Assembly: GCA_963702845.1 (NCBI GenBank)
Contig: OY969763.1
Span: 5,600,001-5,664,000 of the forward strand
Reading direction: 5' to 3'
Source of the DNA: an uncultured Verrucomicrobiae bacterium
Lineage (GTDB): Bacteria > Verrucomicrobiota > Verrucomicrobiia > Limisphaerales > Palsa-1400
Length of the DNA stretch: 64,000 nucleotides
This document shows, in pieces, positions 4,629 through 59,196 of the stretch. Under the pieces are notes generated by a model, which did no database searches, had not been told where the DNA came from, and saw nothing but the letters and a program-made list of their open reading frames with translations. Numbering within the stretch: position 1 is the first letter of the stretch; the number at the start of each line of letters is the position of its first letter. Position numbers and translations under genes: made by a program.

Positions 4629-7600
4629 TTAGAAAGCGGCGACGCGGTAGATGCGGTGATCTCTGGTGGCAGAAGAGTCAGTGATCGACGCGAGATTGCC
4701 GGTGATGGTGATGGTGCCGTTGAGAATCTGCCAAGTCGCGTCGTCGATATTGTCTTTGTATTGGACGTGATAGGTCTGGCCCGGACTTGAAGGCCATGAA
4801 ATGGTTGTGCCGGTGTCTGAAACCGATACGGTTGCATAGAGGAACGCGAACTCGAAAACATCGGTGCCCTGGTTGAAGTCGCCGTTCACAAGATCGCTGC
4901 CGAAACTCGAGAACACGACGGTATGGCCATCCGCGGTGAACACGGGTGCGAACGAGCGGAGGTTGCCGCCGGATCTGGAGATGCGCCGGTGCTCAGGATG
5001 GAGTTTGTTCCAGTTTGCGTGTCGTAAACGAACAGGCGCGGGGCGCCGTTCGTGTCGGGAAATTCCATGTTCTGGACAAGGTTCGAAGAGGTGCTTCGAT
5101 AAACGATGTAGCGACCGTCAGCGCTAATATCCGGAAAGTCAGAAACGGCGCCGGCTGACTGGGTTGAATCGTATCGATGCGTGATCAAAGTGATGACGTG
5201 TTGGGCAAGGTCGTAGGTCATCAGGTCGGTCCCATTTCCATAAACCAACAGGCCGCCGCCGAAATGAGGAGCGTAGCGGGGCAATGCATTTGCTGAACCG
5301 ATAGCAGTGTCGATGCCGTGCGACAAAAGATGCAAAACGCCTGTTATGACATATGCGATTGAGGTTCCGTCCTCTGTGATCGCCAGACCCGGGGCTGAAG
5401 CGCTGGACGCCACAACAGTGCGAGAGCCTGTCGCCGATGACCAAAGCCAAAGTCCTGCGGTGCCGGAGAAGACTCCCGAGTAGACGACGAAGCGGCCGTT
5501 GTGTGTCATGGCTGCATCGACGAATGAGCTCGTGGTCAGCGCATAAATATTGGAGCTTTGCATGTCGCGCACGAATACGTTTTCACCGCTGAACCCAGTG
5601 TTGGTGGTGAGATTGTTGGCCTTGCTGCGGAAGAGAAGATATTTGCCATCGCCGCTGACGAACGGTGAATACGAATGGTTGTTTGCCTGTACGCCGGCAG
5701 CGGTTTGGCCTGCGAGAGTCATCGTTCCGGTTTGGAGATCCGCCACAAAAACGTTCTGATATCTGTTCGTGGCGCGAGTCATATTTGTCGAGTAACTGGT
5801 GAAGGCAACGTACCGACCATCGCCGCTGATGGACGGTTCGCTCGAGGCGCTATTGGCACTGACACCGTTGCTTGAGACGCTTACTAGTCGTGTCGTGCCG
5901 GTGAGCAAGTCGCGCACGAAAACATCGCGGCTGTTGTTGCTGTCGTTGGTGACGAGGTTTTCGGCCAGGCTGGAGAATGTGACAAAACGGCCGTCGGCAC
6001 TGACCGACCAGGGAGATAAGCTATTGAATCCGGCGGCGGTCGAACCAGCCGGCAAAGTTGGTTCGCGCGATGAGATTAGTTCGACGTAGCCGAGATTCAT
6101 GTCGCGCACAAAGATGTCGTGCGAACGGTTGTTGTCATCGGGAGTGAGTTGATTATCGAATGCATCGAATGCGATCGATCGCGCATCGCCGCTCAAGCTT
6201 GGCAGGGTCGTTGGTAACAGTGAAGCAATGGTACCGCTGGGGTTAATGTCAATTAACGTTGTGGTGTTCGATTGGAGATCATGAATGTAACAATGGAATC
6301 CCGCAGGCATGGCGTTGGTGACCAGATCGGGGGCATTGCTGATGAAGGTGACGAAGCGGCCGGTTGGGTCAATTGAAGGAGCGTCGCAAAGGTAATTAGT
6401 TGAGGGCGCGCCGTTGAGGTTGGCGCTCACCAAGGCGCTGACGCCGGTTTGCGCATCCCAGACTTTGATAGAGCTTCCCGGGATACCGGAGCCTGTACCG
6501 ACCATTCCAACCTTTGCCATGTAAACAACATATCGGCCGTCAGAAGTCATTTCGAGAGTGCGCACTTCTTCATTGGGACCGATAGGCGCGAACGCATTGG
6601 TCTCGATGATGTCGGTGATCGCGGTGGCGACGTTGTAGCGTAAAACGACGCCAGTAGGGCCAGTGGAACTTGAGACAGCTTGGGCGCTCTTGGCCTGAAA
6701 CGCGACGAATTGGCCGTCGGCGCTGATGCAGTGGTCGTAGGAAATGTTGTTGGGTGAGCCGGTATTGTTGGTCGCGACAATTGCATGGGCGTCGATGCTG
6801 GCGCAGATGGTCGTGCCGGCAACGGTGTCGCGGAGGTAGATTTCGCCAGCGTAATTTGTGATGGCGGAGACGAGGTTGGTCGCAGTGCTGTAGAAGGCGA
6901 CGTAACGGCCGTCGGGGGTGATTTCGGGTGATTCGGACGAATTAACAAACGGCGCTTGGGTGGTTGCCTTGGCTCCGACGCTGATCAGCGTCGTGGTGTT
7001 TGACCATGTGTCGCGCACGAATATGTCGGCAATGTTGTTGATGTCGCCAGAAACGAGATTGCTCGCGGCACTGACGAAGGCGATGTAGCGGCCGTCCGGC
7101 GTTATGACTGCGGAGCGCGATGCACCATTGGCAGTGCTTCCATCGGCGGCGACGCTGATCAAAGCGGTGGTGTTGCTTACAGCATCGCGCAGGAAAATGT
7201 CGGCGACGTTATTCGTGTCGTTTGGAACGAGGTCGCTGGCGCTGCTTTCAAAGGCGACGAATTGGCCGTTTGTCGAAATATCCGATGGAAGCGAATCGCC
7301 GTTGCCGCCGTTCAACTGAGATTGGTTGCCGCTAATTAACGTTGTCGCTCCTGAGGTTCGGTCGCGCAGAAAGACGTTTAGTTTGGCGGGGAATGTTTGC
7401 GAGAGCGGTGCGCCGTTGACGTTGGTTGCGAGGTTGGCGGCGGTGCTTGAGAACAGGACGAAACGGCCGTCGGGCGTCATCATCGGTGCCATCGAATCAC
7501 CGCCAGCGGAGGCTGGGACGAGGCTCGGGTCGGGAGCGGAAACGGTTTGGAATGGGCCGGCGGACAAATTCGCGCAAATGAGTCCTGTTGCTGACGCAAG

Positions 7601-7630
7601 CGCCAGTAGGGTTTTGGTATTCACTTTCAT
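4629..7630 (-). CDS. Large secreted TolB/PD40-like beta-propeller repeat protein with conserved C-terminal module (apparent frameshift near 4978)
   Basis: Signal peptide and many P-x-[IM]-[ST]-x-DGR-[FY]-V-x-F-x-S-x-A-x-NL repeats. The repeat pattern continues in ORF 4629..4943 after a 1-nt shift. Confidence 0.8.
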
Positions 7631-7847
7631 AATCCCACACCGAAAGGGGAGAGTCGGTCGAAAATGAGGCTGTCCCGACGGGTAATTTTTGTCAAACGCA
7701 GAACGGCGGCGGACGGACGGAGATTATTGAACAGAAGCAAACTAAGGGAACGAAGAGCGCGTTGTTACGAAGCATCATTGCCCTTGGTGGAGGACATGGG
7801 TATGCTTTACCTTTTGACAGCAAGCTAGAGACGCGAAACGTTTACAC

Positions 7848-8423: not shown

Positions 8424-8426
8424 ACT

Positions 8427-10454: not shown

Positions 10455-12098
10455 ATGAAAACGTGCTGCCGCTGCATGGCGTATCTCGTGTTTCTGCACG
10501 CCTGTTTTTTGGCAGCGTTCGCGGCCAAGGCAAACGTGTACGCCACGAATTTGCGCGTCAATCATTCGACGAACAACGCGGCCGTTTCCTCGCCTAACCC
10601 GGTTGAGATCAGTTATATCCTGAACGAAGACGCTTCGGGTGGAGTTACGGTTCAAATCCTTTCTAACACGAATCTGGTCACAGCTTTTGAGTTTGGTTCT
10701 GGTGGATTGGGAGCACTGCGCGGGACGAATTCGGTTTTTTGGAATGGAACAGATGATGATGGTGATCCGGTTGCGGAAGGACTTTATTCGGTTTCGGTGA
10801 CGGCGCGCTCGACGGGTTTTCTCACTTGGACGCAAACCACGGATGATAACAATGATGGGAACTTCGTTTTCGAACCGCGTGGTATCGCGGTGAATCAAAA
10901 CAGCAACAGCGCGTATTATGGTCGTGTGTTCGTCGGTAATGCCCATGCAAGTGGCGGCGCGATGGACAAACCCGGCGCGAACGTCGGCATTCTCAAGCTC
11001 AACGCGGACGGGAGCGGTGCGGATGAAGGCATCTTCAGCACGGGCGATTATCCGTGGGCCGGTGATTTTTATAGTCCGTGGAAGATTGAGGTCGCAGCAG
11101 ATGACAAGGTTTACATCAACGATTGGAATGCGCTGACCGAAGGAATCGTCATTGCGTTCGACGAGGAAATTTCGGCGAATCGCACGATCGTTTTGGCTGA
11201 CAGCAATTGGCCGAAGGATGGATTTGCGGATTTGAGCGGCCCTTACGTCACGGGCAGTGGGACAAACACACAGCTTTGGATGGCGGACGTCAGCACAAAC
11301 TTTGGCGGGAGCGTCGGGATTGTGGGATTTAATGTCGATACGAATGGCGTGGTGGCCGATGGCGATATGGGGTTCACCGCGGTTTCGGCGACGAATTCGG
11401 ATTTGGACATGGCGCCGTATGATGTGGCGCTGGATCGGGCGGGGAATTTTTACACGATTCAACGCGTCACCGATTTGGATTCTCCTGAAAATCGAGTGAT
11501 GCGGTTTCCGGCTTTTGACGGAACGAATGCGCTGACCGTGGCGGATTGGAAGGTGGGAACGAACGACGACACTTTAATAAATGCGTATGGTATCGCCGTT
11601 AACCCGAGTGGGACGTATGTGGCCGTGGCGGTGCGTGGTTACGGCGCAAGTGGGGAGTTCGAGAATGGGAACGTCTCGGTATTCGATGCGACGAACGGGA
11701 ATTTGGTGACGACCTTCAGCGATGGAACAAACTCCTATACGGACGTGGCGTGGGATAACGTTGGAAATCTTTATGCGACGGACGAGGCGACGAGCGTTTG
11801 GCGCGCTTTTTCGCCGCCGGATGCCAATCAAGCGACGACCGTTTCGGTGCCGTTGATCCAGGTCTATTCCGAAATTTTGCCGCCGCGATTCACCACTCCA
11901 GCGTTGAATGACACACAGGATGGATTGCAATTTTCGCTGATTGGCCAGAGCAACGTGACTTATCTCATTGAATCGACGACTGACCTTCAGGCGTGGTCGC
12001 CGGTGATTACGAATTACAGCAGCACATTGGCGGAGCGGCCAATCACCATCCCGCTCACCAACGACGTGATGTTCTTCAGGGCTTCAGTGCGTCCGTAA
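10455..12098 (+). CDS. Secreted protein: FlgD-like Ig domain, beta-propeller repeats and conserved C-terminal module
   Basis: Signal peptide; VFWNGTDDDGDPVAEGLY (FlgD-Ig-like); PRGIAV/PYDVAL/YGIAV/DVAWDNVGNLY repeats; ends in ...W...FFRA. Confidence 0.75.
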   Translation: MKTCCRCMAYLVFLHACFLAAFAAKANVYATNLRVNHSTNNAAVSSPNPVEISYILNEDASGGVTVQILSNTNLVTAFEFGSGGLGALRGTNSVFWNGTDDDGDPVAEGLYSVSVTARSTGFLTWTQTTDDNNDGNFVFEPRGIAVNQNSNSAYYGRVFVGNAHASGGAMDKPGANVGILKLNADGSGADEGIFSTGDYPWAGDFYSPWKIEVAADDKVYINDWNALTEGIVIAFDEEISANRTIVLADSNWPKDGFADLSGPYVTGSGTNTQLWMADVSTNFGGSVGIVGFNVDTNGVVADGDMGFTAVSATNSDLDMAPYDVALDRAGNFYTIQRVTDLDSPENRVMRFPAFDGTNALTVADWKVGTNDDTLINAYGIAVNPSGTYVAVAVRGYGASGEFENGNVSVFDATNGNLVTTFSDGTNSYTDVAWDNVGNLYATDEATSVWRAFSPPDANQATTVSVPLIQVYSEILPPRFTTPALNDTQDGLQFSLIGQSNVTYLIESTTDLQAWSPVITNYSSTLAERPITIPLTNDVMFFRASVRP

Positions 12099-12134
12099 CA
12101 AAGCACCGGTTGACGGGCGGCGCGGGGCTTTCTA

Positions 12135-13978: not shown

Positions 13979-13999
13979 CGCAGTGTTTGTAGCATTGAG

Positions 14000-20391: not shown

Positions 20392-21576
20392 CTATTTTCT
20401 TAGACGGAAATACTGCGGCACTGGTGACATCGGCAACGCCACGACAAATTGCGAACCGCTGTTGGCCGGTGAATTCGTCACCGCGCTCCAGTTGTTGGTC
20501 GATGAAAGATTGGTCGACGTTTGCAGGCTAAAGCCGGTCGATGGAGTGGGCCACGCGATTTGAATTTGGGTGCTCGTGTTGGTTATCTGCAACGTCGGAA
20601 CCGGCACGGGCTGCGTTGCCAGCCACAATGACGCGTTTAAAATGAGAATGCCTGCGGTCGTGCTGGAATCGGCGTAGCCCTGGCTGAAAAACAATGAGTC
20701 GCCGGGGTCGCCTGTGCCGTCGTCAAATGGCGAACTGTCGCCCGAAGCGACGACTTTGCCGCTGCCATACGTCGCATAGACGATCACGCCATTGTTATTG
20801 CCGTGTGTAGAACTGCTCCACATCGCAATTCTGGCACTTGAATTTTGCGCGGTATTAATCGTGATGCTTGAGCCGTTGTTATACGGGAAGTCGACGCCGG
20901 TTCCGGTCGGCCCATGCGTGATAGGATCTGACGCGTTGGAATCGGCCTGCGCAAAGTCACCAGTGAGATTGTCGCCGTTGAAAGAAATGCCGAACGGATT
21001 GTTCGCGACCGAATTTGTCATCAGGGCGTTGAGCACCTGAACGGCATCTGCGCCGTCGTTATTGCGATCGGACGCTCCATGGTCGGATACGATAAACAAA
21101 CCGCCGCCGTCATGAACGAAACTCACAATGGCAGCCTTTTCAGTCGCTGTGAAAAGTATATTCGGTTCGACAAGCACGAACACATTGTAATTGGTAAGGT
21201 CCTGTGGATTGGTGCCGTCCTTGTAAGTGATGTGACCGTTGTAAGGCAACGTTTCGATGCTGTGCCCGTGCTTCACCAAATCGACCGCCCACGCCGAAAG
21301 GGCGCCTTCCCAATATGTTTCCGCCGTGTTCGCGGTGATGCCCGAGGCTGCAGGCGTGGGATAGCGTTGCGGATTGGATTCGGAACCGGCTCCGGGTGTG
21401 CCCGAGCCATCGCTCGCGGCGCTAATTTTTAAATTGTGCAGATCGGCATCGATGACCCAGTCGGCATTGCCGGCCATTTCAGCCTTGGTCGCGTCAAAGA
21501 GAAAAACGGCGGCAGAACATGGGATGGCAGCCGTAATAAGTAAGACGAAAGCAAGGGCAAAGGACAACGACCGCAT
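20392..21576 (-). CDS. Secreted GATase1-like domain protein with conserved C-terminal module
   Basis: Signal peptide, FLFDATKAEMAGNADW, FVHDGGGLFIVSDH, GKVVASGDSS; ends in ...W...YFRL. Confidence 0.7.
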   Translation of the reverse strand: MRSLSFALAFVLLITAAIPCSAAVFLFDATKAEMAGNADWVIDADLHNLKISAASDGSGTPGAGSESNPQRYPTPAASGITANTAETYWEGALSAWAVDLVKHGHSIETLPYNGHITYKDGTNPQDLTNYNVFVLVEPNILFTATEKAAIVSFVHDGGGLFIVSDHGASDRNNDGADAVQVLNALMTNSVANNPFGISFNGDNLTGDFAQADSNASDPITHGPTGTGVDFPYNNGSSITINTAQNSSARIAMWSSSTHGNNNGVIVYATYGSGKVVASGDSSPFDDGTGDPGDSLFFSQGYADSSTTAGILILNASLWLATQPVPVPTLQITNTSTQIQIAWPTPSTGFSLQTSTNLSSTNNWSAVTNSPANSGSQFVVALPMSPVPQYFRLRK

Positions 21577-45920: not shown

Positions 45921-46691
45921 ATGAAAAACCTGTTATCCCTTCGATCACAATTCGTCCTTATCACAGCCGCTACACTGGCCATCCAAGTTTCAACTCGCGC
46001 TCAAGATCCGACACCGGCTTCGAAAGGGCCGACGTGGCAAAGCAGCGCTGCCGCCGGCTTGACGCTCACGAGCGGTAACAGCGATACGGTGCTGGCGACG
46101 CTCGCCGCAACGACGGGCAAGAAATGGACAAATAATGAAGTAGCGTTCGGCGCGGACGGCGCTTACGGGAACTCTAAGGTAAATGGTGTCGAGTCGAAAA
46201 ACGCGGCGAACATTCACGGGTTCGGCCAATACAATCGGTTGTTTAACGAGCGCCTCTACGCGTATGCGCGCGTGGAAGGGCTGCACGATGATATTGCAAA
46301 AATCCGCTATCGCCTGACGCTCAGCCCCGGTGCTGGTTATTATTTCATCAAAAACAAAACCACGGATCTGTGCGGCGAAGTCGGTCCAGGCTTCGTGGCA
46401 CAACGTCTGGGGGTGGAAACGAAGGATTATTTTACGCTGCGTCTCGGCGAAAAATTTAATCACAAGTTGAGCGACCGCGCGCGCATTTGGCAAACGGCTG
46501 AGTTCCTCCCGCAGGTCGATAACTTGAGCAATTACATCATCAATTTCGAGATCGGTATTGAAGCGGATATCACAAAGGATAAGAAGTTGTCGCTGCGCAG
46601 TTATTTGCAAGATACCTACAACAGCATTCCGGCAGAGGGCCGTAAGAAGAATGACATGAAGCTGGTGACGGGAATCGCCTATAAGTTCTAA
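45921..46691 (+). CDS. DUF481/YdiY-like outer-membrane beta-barrel protein
   Basis: Signal peptide, GLTLTSGNSDT, amphipathic strands, terminal GIAYKF. Confidence 0.85.
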   Translation: MKNLLSLRSQFVLITAATLAIQVSTRAQDPTPASKGPTWQSSAAAGLTLTSGNSDTVLATLAATTGKKWTNNEVAFGADGAYGNSKVNGVESKNAANIHGFGQYNRLFNERLYAYARVEGLHDDIAKIRYRLTLSPGAGYYFIKNKTTDLCGEVGPGFVAQRLGVETKDYFTLRLGEKFNHKLSDRARIWQTAEFLPQVDNLSNYIINFEIGIEADITKDKKLSLRSYLQDTYNSIPAEGRKKNDMKLVTGIAYKF

Positions 46692-47067: not shown

Positions 47068-50000
47068 ATGGAAAACCAGATGATGGTTATCGGGGAAACT
47101 AATGTGGACATTAACAGGAATGTTACTGTCCAGAAAACGGGCTGCTTAACCTTCGCCGAGCGCGTGCGTGGCAAATTTGCGACGCTGCTGCTCGTGGTGG
47201 TGGCCGTTTTTTCGTCTGCTCAGGTCGTGCATGCCGCCGTGACGTATTCGTTGGACGGGCAGGTCAATGGCAGTTCGACGTGGGGTAACAAACTCAGTGG
47301 CTACAAGGAATTGGACTGTATGCCGTGTCGTGTGGACATGATCGGCGGGCCAGGGACGAATCTTGTGATTACGATTAATTTTCCTCGAGACAATGGGACG
47401 ACGCCGTGCATTCAGGATCTTTATAGCTGGTCGTATTCGTCGAATGTCGTTGTGGTTTCGCCGCCTGCTTTGACGGTCTCAACCGGTAGCATATGGACAT
47501 ATTCATTAACGGTTACGGTAACGAACGGCGCGGAGGCGGACGTGTATTTCTGTGCGAGGTTGGCGGCTGGAGCCCATGGCATTCCGGGCACGTCGGAGAA
47601 AATAACCGGGACGGGCGGGTCGGTGCAGATTGTCAAACCAGGGGCGGGCTCCGGCACGCCGGATTTGTCTATCGTAAAAACCGGACCCTCATTGATTAAC
47701 GCAGGATCATTTGTCACCTATACGCTTACTTGGTCGAACACGACCGCCAGCACTGCCGGTGGTGTTCAAATCACGGACTTTTTGCCAACCAATGCAGTAT
47801 TCGTTAGCTGCAGCGGAGGTTGCACCGGCAACACGAATAACAGCACAATCGTCTGGGACCTAGGGTTGCTCGCAAAGGGAGCGAGCGGCATCGTTTCTTA
47901 TACGATGTTTGTTTCTACCAACACCCTGAACGGAAGTTCCGTGGTGAATACCGCGACAATTCTTACGGCCGACAACGATTCAAATAGCGCGAACAATACT
48001 TCTACGGTCACGAGCACGGTCACGAGCGGCTGCGTGGCCGCGTCTATCGGCGCCCAACCTGTTTCGATTGTTGTATGTCCCGGGACGGCGGCGACCGTCA
48101 GCGTTGGCGCAAACGGGACGACGCCATACGCGTATCAGTGGCAAAAGAACGGAACGAATATTTCGGGAGCAACCGCGAGCGCGTATACGATTGCGTCAGC
48201 GTCGGCTGCGGATGTTGCCTCCTACTCGGTGGTTGTGACGAATGGTTGCGGTTCGGTGACGTCGTCCGCTGCTACGGTGACGCTCTACACGGCCACGACT
48301 GCTTCGGCTTTGACCAACCAGATTGCTTGCCCGAGCAATAGCGTCGCATTCGCCACGACCGCATCGGGTACCGGGCCGTTTACGTATCAGTGGCAGAAAA
48401 ATGGTTCGAACCTCACGACTCAGACCAACAGCAGTATAGCTTTGACGAACGTGTCGGCAGCTGATTCGGCCACGTATAGCGTGCTCGTGACTGGCAATTG
48501 TAATTCAGTGACCAACAGCGCAACGTTGACCGTCAATACACTGGCGAGCTCGGCTGGCTTGACCAGCATTACGAATAATTGTTCGGGGACGACCGCAGCG
48601 TTCACGGAAGTCGTCTCAGGAACGGGACCGTTTACGTATGTGTGGAAGAAGAACGGCGCAGTAGTGAGTGGACAGACGAGCAGTTCGTTTGTGATTCCGG
48701 CGACGGCCACGACGGACTCGGGAACCTACGCCGTTGAGGTGACCGGGTCGTGCAATAGTATTACCAACAGCGCAACGCTCGTGGTCAGCACGGGAACGTT
48801 TGGGACGGCGCTGACCAATTTGGTGCTTTGCCCAGGTAACTCGGCAAGCTTTAGCACGGTTGCATCGGGCGCGGCTCCGTTTTCTTATCAATGGCGAAAG
48901 AACGGCGCCAATATTTCGGGGCAAACCACCAGCGCATATAATATCGGTTCTGTTTCGATCACGGACGCGGGAACGTATTCGGTCGAGATTACCGGCAACT
49001 GCAATAAGATCACAAATAGCGCGACGCTGGCGGTCAACACACTTTTGAGTGGTGGGTCGTTCGGCGGCCAAACGGTGTGTGTCGGCCAGAGCGCGACGTT
49101 CACGACCGTGCCGGCAGGTAGTGCTCCTTTCACTTACGTATGGAAAAAGGACGGGGTCGTCCAGGGCATTACGTCTAATTTGCTTACGGTTGTTTCAGCT
49201 ACGACTGGCGATGCCGGAACGTATACTGTTGAAATCAACGGGCCTTGTAATTCGATTACAAACAGCGGAACTCTCACGGTGAACTCGGCGACGACCGCGT
49301 CGGCGTTGATCAGTCTGACGAATTGTCCCGGACAAAGTGCGACATTCAGCACGGTGGCTTCTGGAACTAGTCCGTTCACGTATGTTTGGAAAAAGGACGG
49401 CGTCGTTCAGAGCAGCACGAGCAGTTCGCTGACTGTGGCGTCTGTTTCGGGTGGTGACGCGGGAACTTACACCGTCGTGGTGATGGGCGCGTGCAATTCA
49501 GTAACGAATAGCGCGATGCTGGCGGTGAACACCGCGACGGCGGCGACTGCTTTGAATGATTTAACGAACTGCGTCGGGCAGAGCGTCGCCTTTACGACAG
49601 CCGCTTCCGGCACTGGACCTTTTACATACGTGTGGAAAAAAGACGGCATTGTGCAGGGCAGCACATCGAACACGTTGAGCGTTGCGTCTATTGCAACGGG
49701 GGATGCCGGATCTTACACGGTAGAGATTACCGGCACGTGCAACAGCGTGACGAACAGCGCGACGTTAATGGTGAACACGCTCACCACCGCAACGGCATTG
49801 ACACCAATTATCACCTGCGAAGGTCAGAGCGCGACTTTCAGCACGACTGGTGCCGGCGCTGGGCCATTGACATACGTGTGGAAGAAAAACGGCGTGAACC
49901 TCGGCAACAGCTCCAGCTCGTTGACGATTGCGTCGACGGCGATCGCGGATTCTGGAACTTACACCGTTGAAGTCACGGGCGTGTGCAATAGTGTGACGAA

Positions 50001-53000
50001 CAGTGCGACGTTAACGGTTAATGCGCTCGCGACTGCGTCGGCTTTGAATAATTTGACAAACTGCGTTGGGCAAAGCGTTGCCTTTTCGACAGTCGCTTCC
50101 GGCACTGGGCTATTTTCATATGTGTGGAAAAAAGATGGCGTCGTCCAGGGGAGCACGTCGAACACGTTGAGCGTTGCGTCTATTGCAATGGCGGATGCTG
50201 GATCTTACACGGTAGAGATTACCGGCACGTGCAACAGCGTGACGAACAGCGCGACATTGACGGTGAATTCGCCGACAACGGCTTCGCTGTTGACGAGCCT
50301 GGTGCTGTGTCCGGGGCAGAGCGCGAGTTTCACAACGACTCCTTCGGGCAGTGGGCCGTTTACTTATGTGTGGAAGAAAGACGGCATCATCCAAAGCAGC
50401 GCTTCGGATACTTTGACGATCGGGTCGGTCGCGAGCGGTGATGCCGGCACATACACGGTGGAAGTGACCGGCACGTGCAACAGCGTGACCAATACCGCGA
50501 CCTTAACGGTGAACGATCCGACGACGGCAACAGTGTTGAATAGTTTGACGATTTGCCCTGGCCAGAGTGCAGCGTTTGGGACGACGGCTTCTGGCACTGG
50601 ACCGTTCACATATGTTTGGAAAAAGGACGGCGTCGTTCAGGCCAGCACGACTAATTTATTGACGATCGCTTCAGCGACGAGCGCGGATGCGGGCAGTTTT
50701 ACAGTCGAGGTCGCCGGCGCGTGTAACAGTGTGACGAACAGCGCGACTTTGACGGTGAACGCTAGCACGGGCGCGACTGGCCTCGTGGATCTGGTGCTTT
50801 GTTCTGGCCAATCCGCCACGTTCAGCACGACGGCTTCCGGCACGGGTCCGTTTAGTTATGTTTGGAAAAAGGACGGCGTTGTGATGGGCACAACAACGAA
50901 CACGTTGACGATTGCTTCAGTTGCGACGGCTGATGGCGGCATTTACACGGTTGAAGTCAGCGGTGCATGCAACACTGTGACGAACAGCGCAACTTTAACA
51001 GTCAACGAATTGACGACAGCGACGCCGTTGATCGACGTGGTAACGTGCGGACAAAGCGCGACATTTAGCACGGTGGTTTCGGGTGCGGGACCGTTTACTT
51101 ACATTTGGAAAAAGAACGGCGTCGTCCAAAGCAGCGCGACGAATTCGTTGACGGTTCCGTCGGTGACGAGCGCGGACGCGGGCACATACACAGTGGAGGT
51201 CAGCGGCAGTTGCAACAGCGTGACCAATAGCGCGATGTTGACTGTCAACGCGGACACGAGCGCGGCGGCTTTGAATAATCAGGTTGTCTGCCCGGGACAA
51301 AGCGCGACGTTCAGCACGGTGGCATCGGGCAGCGGACCGTTCACTTACGTTTGGAAGAAGGATGGCGCAGTGCAAAGCAGCACCTCTAGTTCGCTGACGA
51401 TTGCGTCTGTCGCGAGCGGCGATGCGGGAACATACACCGTTGAGGTGAACGGCGCGTGCAACAGCGCCACCAACAGCGCGACGCTCGCGGTCAACACGCC
51501 CACGAGCACGAGCGTCTTGAGCAGTTTGGTGGTTTGCCCTGGTCAAAGTGCCACGTTCACGACTGTGCCGTCGGGCACCGGTCCGTTTGTATATGTGTGG
51601 AAGAAGGACGGCGTTATCCAAGCGATTACCATGAATGTTGTGACAATTGCATCTGCCGCAGCTGCGGACGGCGGAACGTATACGGTCGAAGTGTCTGGTG
51701 TTTGCAACTCGGTCACTAACAGCGCCACGTTGACGGTGAGCGAAAACACGGTGGCAACAAGCCTCACGGATATCGTCCTTTGCCCAAGTCAGTCGGCAAC
51801 ATTTACGACGACTGTGTCGGGCACTGGACCGTTTGGATATGTCTGGAAGAAGGATGGTGTGGTGTTGGTTGGCGAATCCACAAACACGATCAGCATCGCC
51901 TCGGTGAGTGCAGCGAATGCGGGAAGTTACACGTTGGAAGTCACTGGGGTTTGCAATGCGGTTACGAACACGGCGACTTTGACAGTGAATGAGAATGTGA
52001 GTGCGACAGCGCTCAGCGATGTTGTGGTTTGTGAAAATCAACCGGCAGCATTTACGACGACGGCATCTGGCACAGGTCCGTTTGCTTATGTGTGGAAGAA
52101 GGACGGCAGCGTTCTGCCGGGTCAAACCGATAGCAGCGTCAGCATTGCATCGACTCAGGTAAGTGACGCGGGAATATACACAGTGGAAGTAACTGGCCTT
52201 TGCACGAGCGTGACGAACATTGCGACTTTGACGGTCAATCGCTTAACCACGACTTCTGATTTGACGAGCCTGGTTGTTTGCCCGGGCCAAAGCGCGACCT
52301 TCACGACCGTTGCTTCCGGCGCTGGTCCGTTCAGCTACGTGTGGAGCAAGGATGGTCAAACGATTGCCACTGAAACGGCCGACCACATCACGCTGGACAA
52401 TGTCGCGGCAGCAAACGCGGGCACATACAGCGTCCACGTCACTGGCATCTGCAACAGCGCTGACAAGAGCGCGACGCTGACCGTTAATGAAAACACAGCA
52501 GCAACGAGTTTGACGGATCTCGTTCTGTGTCCCGGTCAGTCGGCAGCATTTACGACGGCTGTGTCCGGTACTGGACCGTTTGGATACGTGTGGAAGAAGG
52601 ATGGGGTGGTGTTGACTGGTGAGACTACAAACACCATCAGCATCGGATCTGTGACGGCGGGCAATGCGGGAGCTTACACGGTTGAAGTCACTGGCGTCTG
52701 CAAGAGCGTGACAAACACGGCGACTTTGACGGTCAATGAAAACGTGAGCGCGACAGCGCTGAGCGATGTGGTGGTTTGTGAAAACCAATTGGCGGCGTTC
52801 TCGACGACGGCGTCGGGGGCTGGTCCGTTGGCTTACGTGTGGAAGAAGGACGGTAGTGTTCTGTCGGGCCAAACCGACAGCAGCATTAGCATTGCGTCGG
52901 CTCAAGTTGCCAACGCCGGGACTTACACAGTGGAAGTCACTGGTCTTTGCACGAGTGTTACGAACAGTGCGACGTTGACAGTGAATCGTCTGACGGCCAC

Positions 53001-56000
53001 ATCTGATTTGACGAGCATGGTTGTGTGCCCAACCCAGAGCGCCACGTTTACGACGGTTCCTTCCGGTACTGGACCGTTCAGCTATCTGTGGAGCAAAGAT
53101 GGTCAGGTGATCGCAAGTGAAACGACTGATCACATCACGTTGAACAACGTGACTGCTGCAAATGCCGGCACCTATAGCGTTCATGTCACTGGTATCTGCA
53201 ACAGCGTCGACAAGAGCGCGACGTTGATCGTGAATGAAAATACGGCGGCGACTGCTTTGACGGATATCGTGCTCTGCCCTGGTCAAGCGATGACGTTTGC
53301 GACGGTGGTTTCTGGCACTGGTCCGTTTGGTTTCGTGTGGAAGAAGGATGGTGTCGTTCTGGATGGCCAAACGACAAATAGCTTCAACATCGGTCCGGTT
53401 GCTGCGATTGACGCGGGAACTTATACGGTTGAAGTGACGGGCGTTTGCAACAGCGTGACCAATAGTGCGGTTGTCACAATTAATCAGAACGTTAGTTCGA
53501 GCGCCTTGACGGATCTGGTCGTTTGCCAAGGTGCACCGGCGATATTCTCAACAACGCCGGCTGGCACTGGACCATATACATATGTGTGGAAGAAAGACGG
53601 CGCGGTGTTGTCGGGCGAAACGCAAAACAGCCTGACAATTGCGTCGGCGGATCTGGGCAATGCGGGAACATATTCAGTGGAAGTGGCTGGCGTTTGCACT
53701 GCGGTGACGAATAGCGCGACGTTGATCGTCAATACCACGACGACGACTACGGATTTGACGAGTCTGACATTGTGCCCCGGCCAAAACGCGTCGTTTGGCA
53801 CGATTCCTTCGGGGACTGGACCGTTTACATATGTGTGGACCAAGGACGGTCAGGTGATGGCGAGTGAAACAGCGGATCACATCACCGTCAATGGAGTCGC
53901 AGCGGCGAACGCGGGTACTTACAGCGTGCACGTGACCGGCACATGCAACGGCGTGGATAAGAGTGCGACATTGACAGTGAATGAAAACACGGCGGCAACA
54001 AGTTTGACTGATCTCGTTTTGTGTCCCGGCCAATCGGCAGCATTTACGACGGCAGTCTCTGGCACCGGACCGTTTGGATATGTGTGGAAGAAGGATGGTG
54101 GGGTGTTGACTGGTGAGACTACGAACACGATCAGCATTGCAACGGTCACTGCGGTCAATGCTGGGACTTACACGGTCGAAGTCACTGGTGTTTGCAATAG
54201 CGTGACGAATACGGCGACCTTGACGGTGAACAAAAATGTGAGCGCGACGGCGCTCAGCGATGTGGTGGTTTGCGAAAATCAATCGGCGGTATTTACGACG
54301 ACCGCGTCGGGCACTGGGCCGTTGGCTTACGTGTGGAAGAAGGACGGTAGTGTTTTGCCGAGTCAAACCGACAGCAGCGTCAGCATTGCATCGGCTCAGG
54401 TAAGTGACGCGGGAATATACACAGTGGAAGTTACTGGTGTTTGCACGAGCGTCACGAACAGCGCGACTTTGACGGTCAATCGCTTAACCACGACTTCTGA
54501 TTTGACGAGCCTGGTTGTTTGTCCGAGCCAAAGTGCGACCTTCACGACCGTTCCTTCTGGTACCGGACCGTTCAGCTACGTGTGGAGCAAGGATGGTCAA
54601 ACGATCGCCTCTGAAACGGCTGACCACATCACGCTGAACAATGTGACTGCGGCCAATGCGGGCACCTACAGCGTGCATGTGACCGGGACATGCAACAGCG
54701 TGGATAAGAGCGCGACGTTGACCGTAAATGAAAATACGACGACGACGGCACTGACGAGTTTGGTGTTGTGCCCTGGTCAAACGGCGACGTTTACGACCAT
54801 AGCTTCTGGCACTGGCCCCTTGAGCTACGTGTGGAAGAAGGATGGCGTGGTGCAAGGCAGCGCGTCCGACACATTGACGATTGGTGCGGTCGCGAGTGGC
54901 GATGCGGGAACTTATAGTGTGGAAGTGACCGGAACGTGCACGAGCGTGACGAACACGGCGACGTTGACGGTGAATGAAAATGCTACTGCGACAGCACTGA
55001 CGAGTTTGGTGCTCTGCCCTGGGCAGCCTGCAACCTTCACGACCGTTGCTTCCGGCACTGGTCCATTGACGTATGTATGGAAGAAGGACGGTGTTGTGCA
55101 AGGCAGCGCAACCAACGCGCTGACGATTGCGGCTGTCACGAGCGCTGACGCGGGCACTTACACAATTGAAGTCATCGGAACATGCACGAGCGTGACAAAT
55201 TCTGCGACGTTGACCGTGAACGAAAACACGGCGGCGACGAGTTTGACTGATCTCATTTTGTGCCCTGGCCAATCCGCAGCATTTGCGACGACTGTGTCCG
55301 GCACTGGACCGTTTGGGTTCGTGTGGAAGAAGGATGACGTGGTCTTGCTTGGCGAGACCACTAACACCATCAGCATCGCAACGGTCACTGCGGCGAATGC
55401 CGGCATCTACACGGTTGAAGTCAGCGGTGTGTGCAACGCGGTGACGAACACGGCGACTTTGACGGTGAACGAGAATGTGAGTGCGACAGCGCTAAGTGAC
55501 GTTGTGGTTTGCGAAAATCAATCGGCGGCGTTCTCGACGACGGCGTCGGGCACGGGTCCTTTGACTTACGTGTGGAAGAAGGACGGCAGCGTTCTGCCAG
55601 GTCAAACTGATAGCAGCATCAGCATCGCATCGGCGCAGGTAAGTGATGCGGGAATGTACACAGTGGAAGTCACGGGTCTTTGCACGAGTGCGACGAACAG
55701 CGCCACGTTGACTGTTAATCGTCTGACGACGACATCTGATTTGACGAGCCTTGTCGTCTGCCCAACTCAGAGCGCCACGTTTACAACGGTTCCTTCAGGC
55801 GCCGGACCGTTCAGCTTTGTCTGGAGCAAAGATGGTCAGGTAATCGCAACCGAAACCAGTGCTCACATCACGTTGAACAACGTCACTGCTGCCGACGCAG
55901 GCACATACAGCGTCCATGTCACCGGCATTTGCAACAGTGCTGACAAGAGCGCCACGCTGACCGTTAATGAAAACACGGCGGCAACAAGTTTAACTGATCT

Positions 56001-59000
56001 CGTTTTGTGCCCCGGCCAATTGGCCGTATTTACGACGACGGTGTCTGGCACCGGACCGTTTGGGTTTGTGTGGAAGAAAGATGGCGTGGTGTTGCCGGGC
56101 GAAACCACCAACACAATCAACATCGCCTCGGTGACAGCGACGAATGCGGGGAGTTACACGGTGGAAGTCAATGGCGTTTGCAACAGCGTTACGAACACGG
56201 CCACTTTAACGGTGAACGCAAACGTGAGTGCCACAGCGTTAACGGATGTTGTGGTTTGTGAAAATCAACCCGCAACCTTCTCGACGACGGCATCCGGCAC
56301 CGGGCCGTTGGCTTACGTGTGGAAAAAGGACGGAACTGTTCTGCCAAGTCAAACCGACAGCAGCATCAGCATTGCATCGGCTCAGGTAAGTGACGCGGGA
56401 ATGTACACAGTGGAAGTCACTGGTCTTTGCACCAGCATGACGAACAGCGCCACGTTGACCGTTAATCGCCTCACGACCACATCTGATTTGACGAGCCTTG
56501 TCGTCTGCCCAACTCAGAGCGCCACGTTTACAACGGTTCCTTCTGGTAGCGGACCGTTTAGCTTCGTCTGGAGCAAGGATGGCCAGGTGATCGCAACCGA
56601 AACCACTGACCATATCACGTTGAATAATGTGATTGCTGCAAATGCGGGCACCTACAGCGTCCATGTCACTGGAACCTGCAACAGCGCTGACAAGAGCGCC
56701 ACCTTGACGGTGAATGAAAATACGGCGGCGACTGCTTTGACGGATATCGTGCTCTGCCCGGGTCAGCCGGCCACGTTCTTAACCATTCCTAGTGGCACTG
56801 GTCCGTTCGCCTACGTGTGGAAGAAAAATGGAATTGCGCAAAACAGCACGTCTAATTCATTGATTGTTCTGTCGATCACCAGTGGCGACGCGGGCACGTA
56901 TACTGTTGAAGTTTCCGGCACGTGCACCAGTGTGACAAATTCTGCGACGCTGACCGTGAACACGAACACATCGGCGACGGCGTTGGTGGATATCGTCCGG
57001 TGCCCCGGCAGTTCCGCTGTATTTAGCACGGTTGCGAGCGGCACTGGGCCGTTTACATATTTGTGGCGCAAGAATGGCACCGTGGTGAATGGCCAATCCG
57101 GCAGTTCGCTCACGATCGCTGCTGCCACGTCAACTGACGCTGCCGCGTATAGTGTTGAAGTCAGTGGCGTTTGCCATAGCGTCACAAACACCGCATCGCT
57201 TGTTGTGAATACGAACGTCAGTGCCACTCCGCTGACCGGCATCAACGCCTGCCCCGGCACGACCGCTACTTTCAGCACTGTCGCTACCGGCACCGGTCCC
57301 ATTACTTACGTTTGGAAAAAGAACGGCCAGATTCTCAACGCCCAAACAAATCCGTCGCTGTCGCTGACACTAGTTAGCGCGAGCGATTCGGGCACGTATT
57401 CGGTTGAGGTTTCCGGAACGTGCAACAGTGTCACAAACAGTGCGATGCTCAGTGTGGACACCCTGGTGGCGACGCCATTGATCAATACAACTACTTGCCA
57501 GAATCAACCGGTGACGTTCTCAACAGTCGCCAATGGCACCGGACCGTTCAGCTACGTGTGGAATAAAAATGGCGCAATCATCGCGGCCGCGACCATCAGT
57601 TCCTACACCATTCCGAGCGCGCAAACATCTGACGCTGGCACTTATAGCGTTGTGGTCAGTTCGAGTTGTTCGTCGATTACGAATACGGCAACGCTATCGG
57701 TGGGGCAATCGTTGACGGCGAGCGCGCTGGTCCCAGTGACCCGTTGCCCTGGGCAATCGGCCACGTTCACCACTGCTGTCAGCGGTGGCGGTCCGTTTGT
57801 ATTCGTGTGGAAACAGAACGGCCAGATTCTCGCAGGCCAAACCACTAACTCACTCACCTTCAGTTCGCTTGCGAACGGCAACAGCGGAACGTATTCCATC
57901 GAAGTCACGGGTACCTGCAATAGCGTGACCAACAGTGCAATCTTGACGGTGAAGACGAACGCCAGTGCCACGCCGGTTGGTGATTACACAGTGTGCTCGG
58001 GCCAAAGCGTTACATTCACCACGACTGCTTCCGGCACGGCGCCGTTCGCCTATCGTTGGCGCAGAAACGGCAGCGTTATATCCGGGGCAACAGCCAGTGT
58101 GCTGACGATTGCGTCGGCCACTACGACCAATACTGGAACCTATAGCGTCGAAGTGACCGGTACATGCAATACTGCAACCAACTTCGGTTCGTTGACAGTG
58201 GCCACGCAAACGACCATCACAGCGCTCGCCGATCAGAATATTTGCTCCGGCGAAAACGTGATTGTATTCAGCACGACTCCTTCGGGCGGCGCGCCGTTCG
58301 CTTTCACGTGGAAGACTAACGGAACTGTGATTAGCGGTCAGACAACTAACGTGCTGACGCTGACCAACGTGCCTCCTTCGACCAATGCTTACATCGTGTC
58401 TGTTGACGTGACGGGTGGTTGCGGCAGCGCGTCGAGCACAGCGAACCTGATGGTTTACGGAGTTACCAATGTCCCTGGTGCGATCACGTTCGGCTCCGGC
58501 CAGGATATCAAAATCAACGACAACCAACCGGCGACGCCATACCCGGCCAACATTTTCGTGCATTGTATTCCCGGTATTCCGAAGAAAGTGACGGTCACGC
58601 TGCGCAACGTCACACATTCTTATCCAAGAGACATTAATGCGATGTTGGTTAGTCCAAGCGGGCAAGCTGTGCCGCTGATGATTGAATGCGGCGGCGCCGG
58701 TCCGATATCATTTGTGACGTTAACCTTTGATGATGCAGCCGCGTCGTCACTGCCGCAAAACGACCAAATCATCAGCGGCACCTACAAGCCGACGTCGTAT
58801 CTGTCGAATCCGGAGTTCCCGGTGCCTGCGCCGCAGCCGAATGCAGTTGGTTTAAGCTCTCTCGCGGGCCGAGATCCGACCGGCACGTGGTCGCTCTACG
58901 TGCTCGACGACGATATTATTGACGACGGCTTCATGAAAGGCGGTTGGGAACTAACGTTATTCTACGGTGACGACGTCGCGCCGAAGTTCGTCAACTGGGG

Positions 59001-59196
59001 CTGCCTCGACGACGGAACGTTCCAAACCACGTTGATTGGCACCGCTGGATTGACACACGTCGTGCAGTCCTCGACCGACCTGGTGAACTGGACTTCAGTC
59101 GCGACGAACACGTTGCCAGAGGGAAGTTTCCTGTTCACAACGCCTGTGCCGACGACGGGAGTGAAACAATTCTATCGCGCCATCCGGACGCCGTAG
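47068..59196 (+). CDS. Giant secreted Ig-repeat surface protein (DUF11-like domain, 42 Ig-like repeats, proprotein-convertase P-like domain, conserved C-terminal module)
   Basis: 4042-aa uninterrupted ORF with signal peptide; DLSIVKTGP...VTYTL; 42 counted Y/F-x-W-x-K-[DN]-G...DAGTYTV repeats; HSYPRDI.AMLVSPSG...GTWSLYV; ends ...W...FYRA. Confidence 0.92.
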   Translation: MENQMMVIGETNVDINRNVTVQKTGCLTFAERVRGKFATLLLVVVAVFSSAQVVHAAVTYSLDGQVNGSSTWGNKLSGYKELDCMPCRVDMIGGPGTNLVITINFPRDNGTTPCIQDLYSWSYSSNVVVVSPPALTVSTGSIWTYSLTVTVTNGAEADVYFCARLAAGAHGIPGTSEKITGTGGSVQIVKPGAGSGTPDLSIVKTGPSLINAGSFVTYTLTWSNTTASTAGGVQITDFLPTNAVFVSCSGGCTGNTNNSTIVWDLGLLAKGASGIVSYTMFVSTNTLNGSSVVNTATILTADNDSNSANNTSTVTSTVTSGCVAASIGAQPVSIVVCPGTAATVSVGANGTTPYAYQWQKNGTNISGATASAYTIASASAADVASYSVVVTNGCGSVTSSAATVTLYTATTASALTNQIACPSNSVAFATTASGTGPFTYQWQKNGSNLTTQTNSSIALTNVSAADSATYSVLVTGNCNSVTNSATLTVNTLASSAGLTSITNNCSGTTAAFTEVVSGTGPFTYVWKKNGAVVSGQTSSSFVIPATATTDSGTYAVEVTGSCNSITNSATLVVSTGTFGTALTNLVLCPGNSASFSTVASGAAPFSYQWRKNGANISGQTTSAYNIGSVSITDAGTYSVEITGNCNKITNSATLAVNTLLSGGSFGGQTVCVGQSATFTTVPAGSAPFTYVWKKDGVVQGITSNLLTVVSATTGDAGTYTVEINGPCNSITNSGTLTVNSATTASALISLTNCPGQSATFSTVASGTSPFTYVWKKDGVVQSSTSSSLTVASVSGGDAGTYTVVVMGACNSVTNSAMLAVNTATAATALNDLTNCVGQSVAFTTAASGTGPFTYVWKKDGIVQGSTSNTLSVASIATGDAGSYTVEITGTCNSVTNSATLMVNTLTTATALTPIITCEGQSATFSTTGAGAGPLTYVWKKNGVNLGNSSSSLTIASTAIADSGTYTVEVTGVCNSVTNSATLTVNALATASALNNLTNCVGQSVAFSTVASGTGLFSYVWKKDGVVQGSTSNTLSVASIAMADAGSYTVEITGTCNSVTNSATLTVNSPTTASLLTSLVLCPGQSASFTTTPSGSGPFTYVWKKDGIIQSSASDTLTIGSVASGDAGTYTVEVTGTCNSVTNTATLTVNDPTTATVLNSLTICPGQSAAFGTTASGTGPFTYVWKKDGVVQASTTNLLTIASATSADAGSFTVEVAGACNSVTNSATLTVNASTGATGLVDLVLCSGQSATFSTTASGTGPFSYVWKKDGVVMGTTTNTLTIASVATADGGIYTVEVSGACNTVTNSATLTVNELTTATPLIDVVTCGQSATFSTVVSGAGPFTYIWKKNGVVQSSATNSLTVPSVTSADAGTYTVEVSGSCNSVTNSAMLTVNADTSAAALNNQVVCPGQSATFSTVASGSGPFTYVWKKDGAVQSSTSSSLTIASVASGDAGTYTVEVNGACNSATNSATLAVNTPTSTSVLSSLVVCPGQSATFTTVPSGTGPFVYVWKKDGVIQAITMNVVTIASAAAADGGTYTVEVSGVCNSVTNSATLTVSENTVATSLTDIVLCPSQSATFTTTVSGTGPFGYVWKKDGVVLVGESTNTISIASVSAANAGSYTLEVTGVCNAVTNTATLTVNENVSATALSDVVVCENQPAAFTTTASGTGPFAYVWKKDGSVLPGQTDSSVSIASTQVSDAGIYTVEVTGLCTSVTNIATLTVNRLTTTSDLTSLVVCPGQSATFTTVASGAGPFSYVWSKDGQTIATETADHITLDNVAAANAGTYSVHVTGICNSADKSATLTVNENTAATSLTDLVLCPGQSAAFTTAVSGTGPFGYVWKKDGVVLTGETTNTISIGSVTAGNAGAYTVEVTGVCKSVTNTATLTVNENVSATALSDVVVCENQLAAFSTTASGAGPLAYVWKKDGSVLSGQTDSSISIASAQVANAGTYTVEVTGLCTSVTNSATLTVNRLTATSDLTSMVVCPTQSATFTTVPSGTGPFSYLWSKDGQVIASETTDHITLNNVTAANAGTYSVHVTGICNSVDKSATLIVNENTAATALTDIVLCPGQAMTFATVVSGTGPFGFVWKKDGVVLDGQTTNSFNIGPVAAIDAGTYTVEVTGVCNSVTNSAVVTINQNVSSSALTDLVVCQGAPAIFSTTPAGTGPYTYVWKKDGAVLSGETQNSLTIASADLGNAGTYSVEVAGVCTAVTNSATLIVNTTTTTTDLTSLTLCPGQNASFGTIPSGTGPFTYVWTKDGQVMASETADHITVNGVAAANAGTYSVHVTGTCNGVDKSATLTVNENTAATSLTDLVLCPGQSAAFTTAVSGTGPFGYVWKKDGGVLTGETTNTISIATVTAVNAGTYTVEVTGVCNSVTNTATLTVNKNVSATALSDVVVCENQSAVFTTTASGTGPLAYVWKKDGSVLPSQTDSSVSIASAQVSDAGIYTVEVTGVCTSVTNSATLTVNRLTTTSDLTSLVVCPSQSATFTTVPSGTGPFSYVWSKDGQTIASETADHITLNNVTAANAGTYSVHVTGTCNSVDKSATLTVNENTTTTALTSLVLCPGQTATFTTIASGTGPLSYVWKKDGVVQGSASDTLTIGAVASGDAGTYSVEVTGTCTSVTNTATLTVNENATATALTSLVLCPGQPATFTTVASGTGPLTYVWKKDGVVQGSATNALTIAAVTSADAGTYTIEVIGTCTSVTNSATLTVNENTAATSLTDLILCPGQSAAFATTVSGTGPFGFVWKKDDVVLLGETTNTISIATVTAANAGIYTVEVSGVCNAVTNTATLTVNENVSATALSDVVVCENQSAAFSTTASGTGPLTYVWKKDGSVLPGQTDSSISIASAQVSDAGMYTVEVTGLCTSATNSATLTVNRLTTTSDLTSLVVCPTQSATFTTVPSGAGPFSFVWSKDGQVIATETSAHITLNNVTAADAGTYSVHVTGICNSADKSATLTVNENTAATSLTDLVLCPGQLAVFTTTVSGTGPFGFVWKKDGVVLPGETTNTINIASVTATNAGSYTVEVNGVCNSVTNTATLTVNANVSATALTDVVVCENQPATFSTTASGTGPLAYVWKKDGTVLPSQTDSSISIASAQVSDAGMYTVEVTGLCTSMTNSATLTVNRLTTTSDLTSLVVCPTQSATFTTVPSGSGPFSFVWSKDGQVIATETTDHITLNNVIAANAGTYSVHVTGTCNSADKSATLTVNENTAATALTDIVLCPGQPATFLTIPSGTGPFAYVWKKNGIAQNSTSNSLIVLSITSGDAGTYTVEVSGTCTSVTNSATLTVNTNTSATALVDIVRCPGSSAVFSTVASGTGPFTYLWRKNGTVVNGQSGSSLTIAAATSTDAAAYSVEVSGVCHSVTNTASLVVNTNVSATPLTGINACPGTTATFSTVATGTGPITYVWKKNGQILNAQTNPSLSLTLVSASDSGTYSVEVSGTCNSVTNSAMLSVDTLVATPLINTTTCQNQPVTFSTVANGTGPFSYVWNKNGAIIAAATISSYTIPSAQTSDAGTYSVVVSSSCSSITNTATLSVGQSLTASALVPVTRCPGQSATFTTAVSGGGPFVFVWKQNGQILAGQTTNSLTFSSLANGNSGTYSIEVTGTCNSVTNSAILTVKTNASATPVGDYTVCSGQSVTFTTTASGTAPFAYRWRRNGSVISGATASVLTIASATTTNTGTYSVEVTGTCNTATNFGSLTVATQTTITALADQNICSGENVIVFSTTPSGGAPFAFTWKTNGTVISGQTTNVLTLTNVPPSTNAYIVSVDVTGGCGSASSTANLMVYGVTNVPGAITFGSGQDIKINDNQPATPYPANIFVHCIPGIPKKVTVTLRNVTHSYPRDINAMLVSPSGQAVPLMIECGGAGPISFVTLTFDDAAASSLPQNDQIISGTYKPTSYLSNPEFPVPAPQPNAVGLSSLAGRDPTGTWSLYVLDDDIIDDGFMKGGWELTLFYGDDVAPKFVNWGCLDDGTFQTTLIGTAGLTHVVQSSTDLVNWTSVATNTLPEGSFLFTTPVPTTGVKQFYRAIRTP

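Follow-up and report, generated by a model that had tools for sequence, protein, structure and literature searches.

A C-terminal FnIII-type module predicted to lack strand G, and its putative docking to TIGR02597-family adaptors in Verrucomicrobiota

The tail shared by four otherwise unrelated proteins of an uncultured Verrucomicrobiae bacterium is a real, widespread and uncatalogued terminal domain that resembles a sorting tag, and its function is predicted here. Protein fusions, structure models, motif retention and co-occurrence converge on docking of a split FnIII domain with the TIGR02597 family. We lean slightly towards the reading that the tail is a socket into which a TIGR02597-family adaptor would insert its first strand as the missing one; some 130 likely secreted proteins would in this way become attached to the adaptor and, probably via its PEP-CTERM partner, be held at the cell surface. 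Strand capture in some form, be it by an anchor, a carrier or a pilus, is probable, while the wider proposal that Verrucomicrobiota own a general, phylum-wide, cellulosome-like display system made of a split FnIII domain whose six-stranded part is borne by up to 100 or more enzymes and adhesins per genome, a TIGR02597 adaptor that gives the seventh strand and a PEP-CTERM anchor is evenly poised.

Verrucomicrobiota are regarded as major polysaccharide degraders. A passage of PMC4951047 also bears on this activity of the phylum and has nothing on the module. It is not established by what means these bacteria keep large enzymes and adhesins on their exterior, and the T9SS-like route put forward in a 2025 preprint is no more than a guess. 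If true, the docking reading would describe a new protein-sorting system, and the wider proposal would provide a function for the orphan TIGR02597 family as well as for a class of PEP-CTERM proteins. What the analysis provides is a named signal together with a partner family, a candidate for the anchor and a precise prediction at residue level. Likely surface proteins, amounting here to about 122,000 codons of open reading frame, can also be picked out with the profile, and a naturally split FnIII pair might be turned into a protein-coupling tool.

Four terminal modules in the window

The window, i.e. the whole stretch of 64,000 nucleotides that was analysed, had been described in an initial annotation as holding four signal-peptide proteins with different bodies that end alike. 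Inspection of the open reading frames (ORFs) agrees with this description, as all four tails lie where they had been placed and fit the consensus proposed for them, with the stop 2-5 residues past an aromatic-aromatic-Arg motif. A signal-peptide-like N-terminal segment was recognised by eye on all four bodies, which are mutually unrelated (a PD40/TolB-like propeller, a FlgD-Ig plus propeller-like protein, a DUF4350-like protein and an I-set Ig protein). The features are as follows.

4629..4850, minus strand: terminal module 1 (predicted FnIII strands A-F, no G) of the propeller protein, profile iE 1.3e-15
4629-4943, minus strand: 104-aa ORF holding module 1
4886..7630, minus strand: cargo body 1, signal peptide and PD40/TolB-like beta-propellers, in another frame than its tail
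10455..12098, plus strand: cargo 2 (547 aa), signal peptide, FlgD-Ig domain, propeller-like region, terminal module
11868-12095, plus strand: terminal module of cargo 2, profile iE 2.3e-8
20392..21576, minus strand: cargo 3 (394 aa), signal peptide, DUF4350/GIFT-like domain (match under the Pfam cut-off), terminal module
20395-20607, minus strand: terminal module of cargo 3
47068..59196, plus strand: cargo 4 (4042 aa), DUF11, 40 I-set Ig domains, P-proprotein domain, terminal module
58969..59193, plus strand: terminal module of cargo 4, the copy used for folding, profile iE 1.1e-13

The first tail had been taken as part of one protein; it is indeed present, but it lies in a separate ORF behind a frameshift near 4960-5000, which divides cargo body 1 from its tail and is either an assembly error or a sign of a broken gene. 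In all five relatives examined, body and tail are within a single ORF of about 1020-1530 aa with the module at its end.

Distribution of the module in the genome and the phylum

The genome is a single contig of 6.03 Mb, and close homologues are named as Limisphaerales or Verrucomicrobiales bacteria, Limisphaerales being an order of Verrucomicrobiota. A profile of the four tails alone, searched against 86,195 stop-to-stop ORFs at iE<1e-3, gave 33 matches, 30 of them no more than 10 aa from the stop. At the same threshold the iterated profile recovered 149 domains in 149 ORFs, which confirms the expectation that many more copies exist genome-wide; in 128 of the 149 the stop follows the domain end by no more than 10 aa and in 19 it is over 30 aa away, while reversed ORFs, used as a control, yielded no match at iE<0.1. 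According to a crude heuristic, a signal peptide was scored in 94 of 114 tail ORFs of at least 250 aa, compared with 1161 of 2920 background ORFs. The C-terminal position and the accompanying signal peptide, both noticed initially on four proteins, recur across the genome. Many tail ORFs without a scored signal peptide look like frameshifted fragments.

The cargo is diverse. A random draw of 20 from the 108 cargo proteins with a length of 250-2500 aa gave 13 that matched Pfam at 1e-5 and seven that did not; the domains found include a sulfatase, two GDSL hydrolases, autotransporter-type repeats, LamG lectin domains, a beta-helix and Ig repeats. The terminal copies themselves share a median identity of 21%. 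As to gene order, the clustering of module genes with each other (35, against a random maximum of 42) is not clearly above random.

When 64 tails (the four of the window and 60 spread over the ranking) were compared with Pfam and NCBIfam, no family was matched better than E 0.002, and a search of the ESM Atlas yielded only unnamed Verrucomicrobiota clusters. A sequence search of the PDB with the tail gave a weak match to a contactin FnIII domain. A weak PDB sequence match to a chitosanase binding module (E 5e-5) was rejected as the family of the module, with the central strand motif alone in common; matches of this kind recur as internal false positives in genus g6. A literature search, with most subscription papers outside its scope, returned no description of the tail or of its pairing with TIGR02597.

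Beyond this genome, profile matches were found in 81 of 200 other genomes of the phylum, with a patchy distribution. Absences in this search are soft, because at most 29 candidates were scored per genome and a real module in genome G026 was missed. In a library clustered at 50%, 87,705 clusters were matched, an upper figure that includes true FnIII arrays. Among the top 150 library matches, which are biased to repeats, the last copy lies within 12 aa of the end in 130, and tandem arrays of 2-10 module copies from other genomes are common.

Predicted fold of the module

The module at 58969..59193 was modelled with six strands at a pLDDT of 93 (residues 6-12, 18-23, 29-35, 42-48, 53-57 and 68-73 of the structure model). 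Because it was modelled in isolation with this confidence, the lone module may be stable by itself. Structural matches at Z 6-7.6 were obtained with FnIII domains and bacterial Ig domains. In FnIII domains the model covers the initial 75-80 residues, and these matches end about 15 residues short of the end of the chain or domain. The fold is thus predicted to be of FnIII type, on matches of middling Z that come from many concordant rows. In FnIII terms, the strands are presumably A, B, C, C', E and F, with G absent. The strands number six rather than seven, and Pfam fn3 matched none of the 64 tails. The distance from the strand F motif to the stop is 3-6 residues in 111 of 123 matched terminal copies.

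An adjacent aromatic pair occurs on strand F in 110 of the 128 terminal copies. Since one of two adjacent residues on a strand must face outward, such a pair is as would be expected of a binding surface.

Fusions with TIGR02597 and the predicted donor strand

Of the 19 internal module copies, 13 directly precede a domain of about 325 aa that belongs to TIGR02597, an NCBIfam family with no function given, for which a literature search returned no paper naming it. The genome has 14 TIGR02597 domains, of which 13 come after a module and the remaining one after a stretch that reads as a complete FnIII domain. In a protein collection, a module lies directly upstream in 87 of 90 long TIGR02597 proteins (seven from this genome, most from one clade), and three more module-TIGR02597 fusions were found in genome G222 of another family.

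One natural fusion of a module with TIGR02597 was modelled (pLDDT 96, pTM 0.92). Its FnIII matches reach model residues 82-85, and their Z scores rise by about 2 relative to those of the lone module. The extent of the aligned FnIII domain, from lone module to fusion, changes as follows.

1oww: 1..77 to 2..93 of 93, Z 6.0 to 7.6
1cfb: ..692 to ..707, Z 6.5 to 8.7
6rpx: ..253 to ..268, Z 6.8 to 8.8
3uto: ..83 to ..98, Z 6.4 to 8.0
6gvl: 1650 to 1663

The residues added in these matches are the start of TIGR02597, with the motif D-P-V-G-F, which means that in the fusion model the first strand of the partner takes the place of strand G of the module. This predicted placement is seen within a covalent fusion, a linkage that favours such pairing. 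Foldseek gave no full-length match for the fusion model.

The D-P-V-G-F motif is also located just after the signal peptide in the 21 stand-alone TIGR02597 genes examined (20 loci). In this genome, the only free partner is a 212-aa short form (G000:C1:353834-354472), which starts with a signal peptide followed by the motif Y-S-x-N-x-V-G-Y. At least 1974 homologues of the short form exist, all hypothetical where they bear a name, and the motif of this family is nearly invariant, with S, N, V and G at 100% in 120 close homologues. It matched nothing in Pfam or NCBIfam and had no significant relative in the PDB; a profile comparison revealed remote homology of the short family to TIGR02597 (93.8%, E 1.8e-7). 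Fusions of short-family domains with modules exist as well.

Retention of the donor motif

A natural control is offered by 31 long proteins with short-form domains, in which 48 domains could be anchored and two more had no anchor. Where a module directly precedes the short-form domain, the donor motif is kept in 11 of 12 cases. It is kept in 5 of 25 that follow a domain of another kind and in 2 of 11 that open a multidomain protein, i.e. 7 of 36 away from modules overall. On inspection by eye, the five motif-bearing domains after other domains include two from stand-alone genes whose start was mis-called and two preceded by a module below the score cut-off. For TIGR02597 behind a complete FnIII domain, Gly is present at the donor position in one of two cases and also in the copy of this genome, in a comparison where 8 of 90 rows had no anchor and four were mis-anchored.

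Co-occurrence of module and partner

TIGR02597 was detected in 29 and the short form in 33 of the 200 sampled genomes, with either in 59. At least two modules were present in 49 of these 59 genomes, compared with 20 of the 141 without the partner family, and in family f5 TIGR02597 occurs in 20 of 21 genomes with at least two modules and in 7 of 50 others; these counts ignore kinship, and related genomes are not independent. With the cut at one module or more, the figures for f5 are 21 of 29 and 6 of 42, and 6 of its 27 TIGR02597 genomes have no module.

The correspondence is incomplete on both sides. No partner match was obtained in 20 of the 69 genomes with at least two modules, some of them with over 20 copies, and 10 of the 59 partner-positive genomes have fewer than two modules. 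A deeper look covered five of the nine partner-positive, module-negative genomes. In G026, the short-form gene is directly preceded by a 3678-aa ORF that ends in a clear module, and in G119 a diverged module is present, while G116 has an array of partner and PEP-CTERM pairs with no module match, the deeper look included. Module genes seldom adjoin a free partner (5 of 20 loci, 1 of 20 and 5 of 52 in three sets).

PEP-CTERM pairing and secretion genes

A PEP-CTERM gene of about 200 aa lies directly downstream of the free TIGR02597 gene in 17 of 21 cases and such a gene follows the short-form gene at 20 of 20 loci. The same order was found in 40 of 44 further stand-alone partner cases with room for it, and in three of the four exceptions a module gene lies alongside the partner. 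Pairs of partner and PEP-CTERM gene also occur in arrays. In this genome, two PEP-CTERM genes follow the free partner, out of about four identified genome-wide by pattern, and two exosortases are present. The PEP-CTERM partner has no significant relative in the PDB and is not related to the module. PEP-CTERM proteins have been reported from Verrucomicrobiota (PMC1569441, PMC4960237), and in the portions of these papers that concern them the pairing with the partner is unmentioned.

Among the common neighbours of the partner at 98 loci there is no conserved barrel gene, and no usher or chaperone is listed. The genome possesses four secretin-like loci, one of which (G000 212-214 kb) is flanked by module genes. 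For 19 of 144 module genes, a prepilin-motif gene is no more than two genes away, compared with a mean of 7.1 and a maximum of 16 in 300 random draws. For H-X9-DG genes, adjacency to module genes (3, against 5 at random) is not clearly above random.

Proposed mechanism and alternatives

Terminal position, copy number, fusions, co-occurrence, gene pairing and motif retention can be read directly from the sequences. Models predict the six strands of the fold and, in a natural fusion, a strand G that the TIGR02597 motif provides. We propose that cargo and adaptor would cross the inner membrane via their signal peptides, and that removal of the signal peptide would bare the N-terminus of the adaptor, whose exposed first strand might then pair in the same way with a separate protein and complete the cargo tail, like the donor strands in the part of PMC10628683 on chaperone-usher systems. 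Judged from gene order, the adaptor body may be bound and held by the PEP-CTERM protein encoded next to it, which in turn could be anchored by exosortase, and the fused proteins would be cargo that has taken the adaptor on board. Passage through the outer membrane by a secretin system like those of type II secretion or type IV pili would be the weakest step. Anchoring is better supported than export as the putative role of the tail. Several observations count against docking: the strand was placed in a covalent fusion, where the linkage favours it, most of the 90 fusions come from one clade, the lone module may be stable by itself, module genes seldom adjoin a free partner, tandem arrays of 2-10 modules exist without a donor, the one free adaptor gene here must serve 128 diverse terminal modules with a median identity of 21%, and there are module-rich genomes without a partner match as well as some arrays of partner and PEP-CTERM pairs without a module match.

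The last but one of these points would suit a different role of the adaptor, since one free gene for 128 clients is what a recycled carrier would need. The adaptor might be a transient periplasmic chaperone or export carrier that lends strand G, brings the cargo to a secretin-based exporter and is then released, with the tail as a secretion signal. The same structural and co-occurrence data fit this, and so do the four secretin-like loci, one flanked by module genes, and the enrichment of prepilin-motif genes near module genes. However, 14 genes here and the 90 long proteins have the adaptor as a permanent part of the cargo, and the constant neighbour of the adaptor is an exosortase substrate and no secretion gene, so we consider a carrier unlikely. 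A tail that acts autonomously, as a T9SS-like signal read directly by a putative outer-membrane translocon with the TIGR02597 link being secondary, is somewhat less likely again. It would agree with the single terminal copy on very different cargo, with the 20 module-rich genomes in which no partner was detected and with an Akkermansia surface sulfatase whose terminal domain is T9SS-like, for which a comparable system was suggested in the sections of a preprint that treat it (10.1101/2025.09.11.675649). Yet the tail matches no T9SS tail model, internal and tandem copies occur, no conserved barrel gene is found among the common neighbours of the partner at 98 loci, and it would be left unexplained why the partner motif is kept after the module and mostly lost elsewhere.

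The confident model in isolation, the tandem arrays, the Ig-rich cargo and the distant likeness to ordinary FnIII and Ig domains would all be expected if the module were a self-sufficient six-stranded cap, a spacer or a weak surface-binding domain spread by shuffling, with no sorting role. This is improbable, as 128 of 149 copies are single and terminal and both co-occurrence and motif retention point to one specific partner family. Finally, the partner could polymerise as a fimbria by head-to-tail strand exchange, with the tail proteins as interchangeable tips and the PEP-CTERM protein as the base. The geometry is that of a chaperone-usher tip adhesin with an incomplete Ig fold, as far as the relevant part of PMC10628683 describes it, and partner and PEP-CTERM pairs are found in arrays; nevertheless, nothing points to an acceptor groove of the partner's own, no full-length structural match to a solved pilin appears among the rows listed, and donor-less partner domains occur inside cargo proteins, which makes a fimbria the most improbable of these possibilities.

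Comparison with known systems

The tail belongs to none of the T9SS, PEP-CTERM and dockerin families. According to the portion of PMC7468200 on the subject, the T9SS C-terminal signal of Bacteroidota (TIGR04183) has about 70-80 aa and is present on ten to more than 100 unrelated signal-peptide proteins per genome. Like this signal, which is linked to surface display, the module is a terminal domain of similar size on many unrelated signal-peptide proteins. Unlike it, the module is six-stranded with an FnIII-type open edge, has tandem and internal copies and is associated with a TIGR02597 and PEP-CTERM partner, while cleavage and LPS conjugation are not indicated for it. T9SS tail models in Pfam and NCBIfam matched none of the 64 tails at E<=0.1. 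TIGR04183 had no match in the genome, with control genomes silent too, and SprA (TIGR04189) had none either, in a genome that is 89.8% complete and with no positive control. The initial suggestion of a T9SS analogue is in part supported, for a terminal beta-sandwich on diverse cargo, and finds no support in the T9SS tail models, which are unmatched, or in the tandem and internal copies. The results favour docking on a TIGR02597-family partner and, via gene pairing, the PEP-CTERM/exosortase system over a T9SS-like translocon. Among the best 50 structural matches, which are those listed, no T9SS tail is named, and this excludes no such match. Within the same phylum, the Akkermansia sulfatase Amuc0953, a surface-bound enzyme, ends in a domain similar to the T9SS signal, and the relevant sections of the preprint (10.1101/2025.09.11.675649) raise the possibility of a comparable system. 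Those sections cover one protein and give no family, partner or mechanism.

In the chaperone-usher system, Caf1 is an Ig-like domain without strand G that is completed by the N-terminal strand of another protein, as described in part of PMC10628683. The module is similarly predicted to be an incomplete Ig-like fold without strand G. It differs in being of FnIII type and in serving as a tag on more than 100 enzymes and adhesins, not on the few pilins of one operon, and its predicted donor is from an unrelated family, so far placed within the fusion model.

In the cellulosome, small terminal dockerin tags on many enzymes dock non-covalently on a scaffold that is anchored via a sorting signal, the dockerin being a duplicated calcium-binding segment and a helical tag. 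The module is likewise a small terminal tag on many enzymes; in contrast to the dockerin, it is all-beta in the model and would act in a Gram-negative envelope, by strand insertion instead of as a calcium-binding helical tag. Dockerin families were absent from the matches of the 64 tails at E<=0.1.

The PEP-CTERM/exosortase system is represented by TIGR02595 and PF09721, as set out in portions of PMC1569441 and PMC12188702. The module itself has no PEP motif, transmembrane helix or basic tail and no match in Pfam or NCBIfam, so the initial judgement that it is not PEP-CTERM stands. The fused and the free long partners are members of TIGR02597, a family that is given a predicted role here, while the genes paired with the adaptor are PEP-CTERM members in a genome with two exosortases. 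Through the module, the reach of a few anchored PEP-CTERM proteins would be widened indirectly to many cargo proteins.

Genes flanking the cargo proteins

Two loci in the window adjoin genes for cargo, the proteins that bear the C-terminal module:
2972-4625 (-), a pair of prepilin-like genes that bear an H-x9-D-G motif, immediately after the first cargo gene, which encodes a propeller protein
45921-46691 (+), a gene for a signal-peptide protein whose last residue is Phe, just 5' of the gene for the 4042-aa cargo

Genes with the prepilin motif are over-represented near module genes across the whole genome. The product of the gene at 45921-46691, judged by the appearance of its sequence, looks like an outer-membrane beta-barrel.

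In family f5, three genomes have open frames of 6400-6500 aa that end in the module and lie just 5' of TIGR02597 genes, at:
L061
G274:C41:104568
G275:C1:791346

Domains and arrays of the partner proteins

The partner occurs as the long TIGR02597 form and as a shorter homologous form, which lacks the middle domain of the former (residues 101-188 of the model of L081). This domain structurally matches the phage tail-tip/baseplate domains 8vjh_D, 8gtc_P, and 8iyk_J (Z 7.9-8.0, rmsd 2.3-2.4, 72-75 residues aligned). Among long proteins (P0372-P0391), many contain short-form domains in which the donor motif, the predicted first strand of the partner, is missing, and these proteins have the module as their own C-terminus; the short-form body may be an independent binding or lattice domain. 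Diverged short-form genes, each paired with a PEP-CTERM gene, form arrays of four to five pairs in genomes without a clear module, and these may provide a variable surface coat:
G116:C9:55000-69000 (L114)
G134:C12:16000-30000 (L115)

Minor observations

An amidohydrolase-like gene leaves frame at 1-2654 (-) of the window, and a secretin gene is fragmented at C1:212362-214133 of the same genome; these additional apparent frameshifts suggest indel errors in the assembly. Two weak module-like matches in this genome (C1:310386-312137 and 5879542-5882295; iE 0.015-0.04) lie in the N-terminal vicinity of secreted-looking proteins. A coiled-coil plus TPR protein was found repeatedly near the partner and PEP-CTERM pair (L183:6566-8467 and relatives), in a cluster of 15 loci joined partly through TPR similarity and in eight loci by direct BLAST. 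Its gene in the genome of the window, at C1:4165982-4167910, is located away from that pair.
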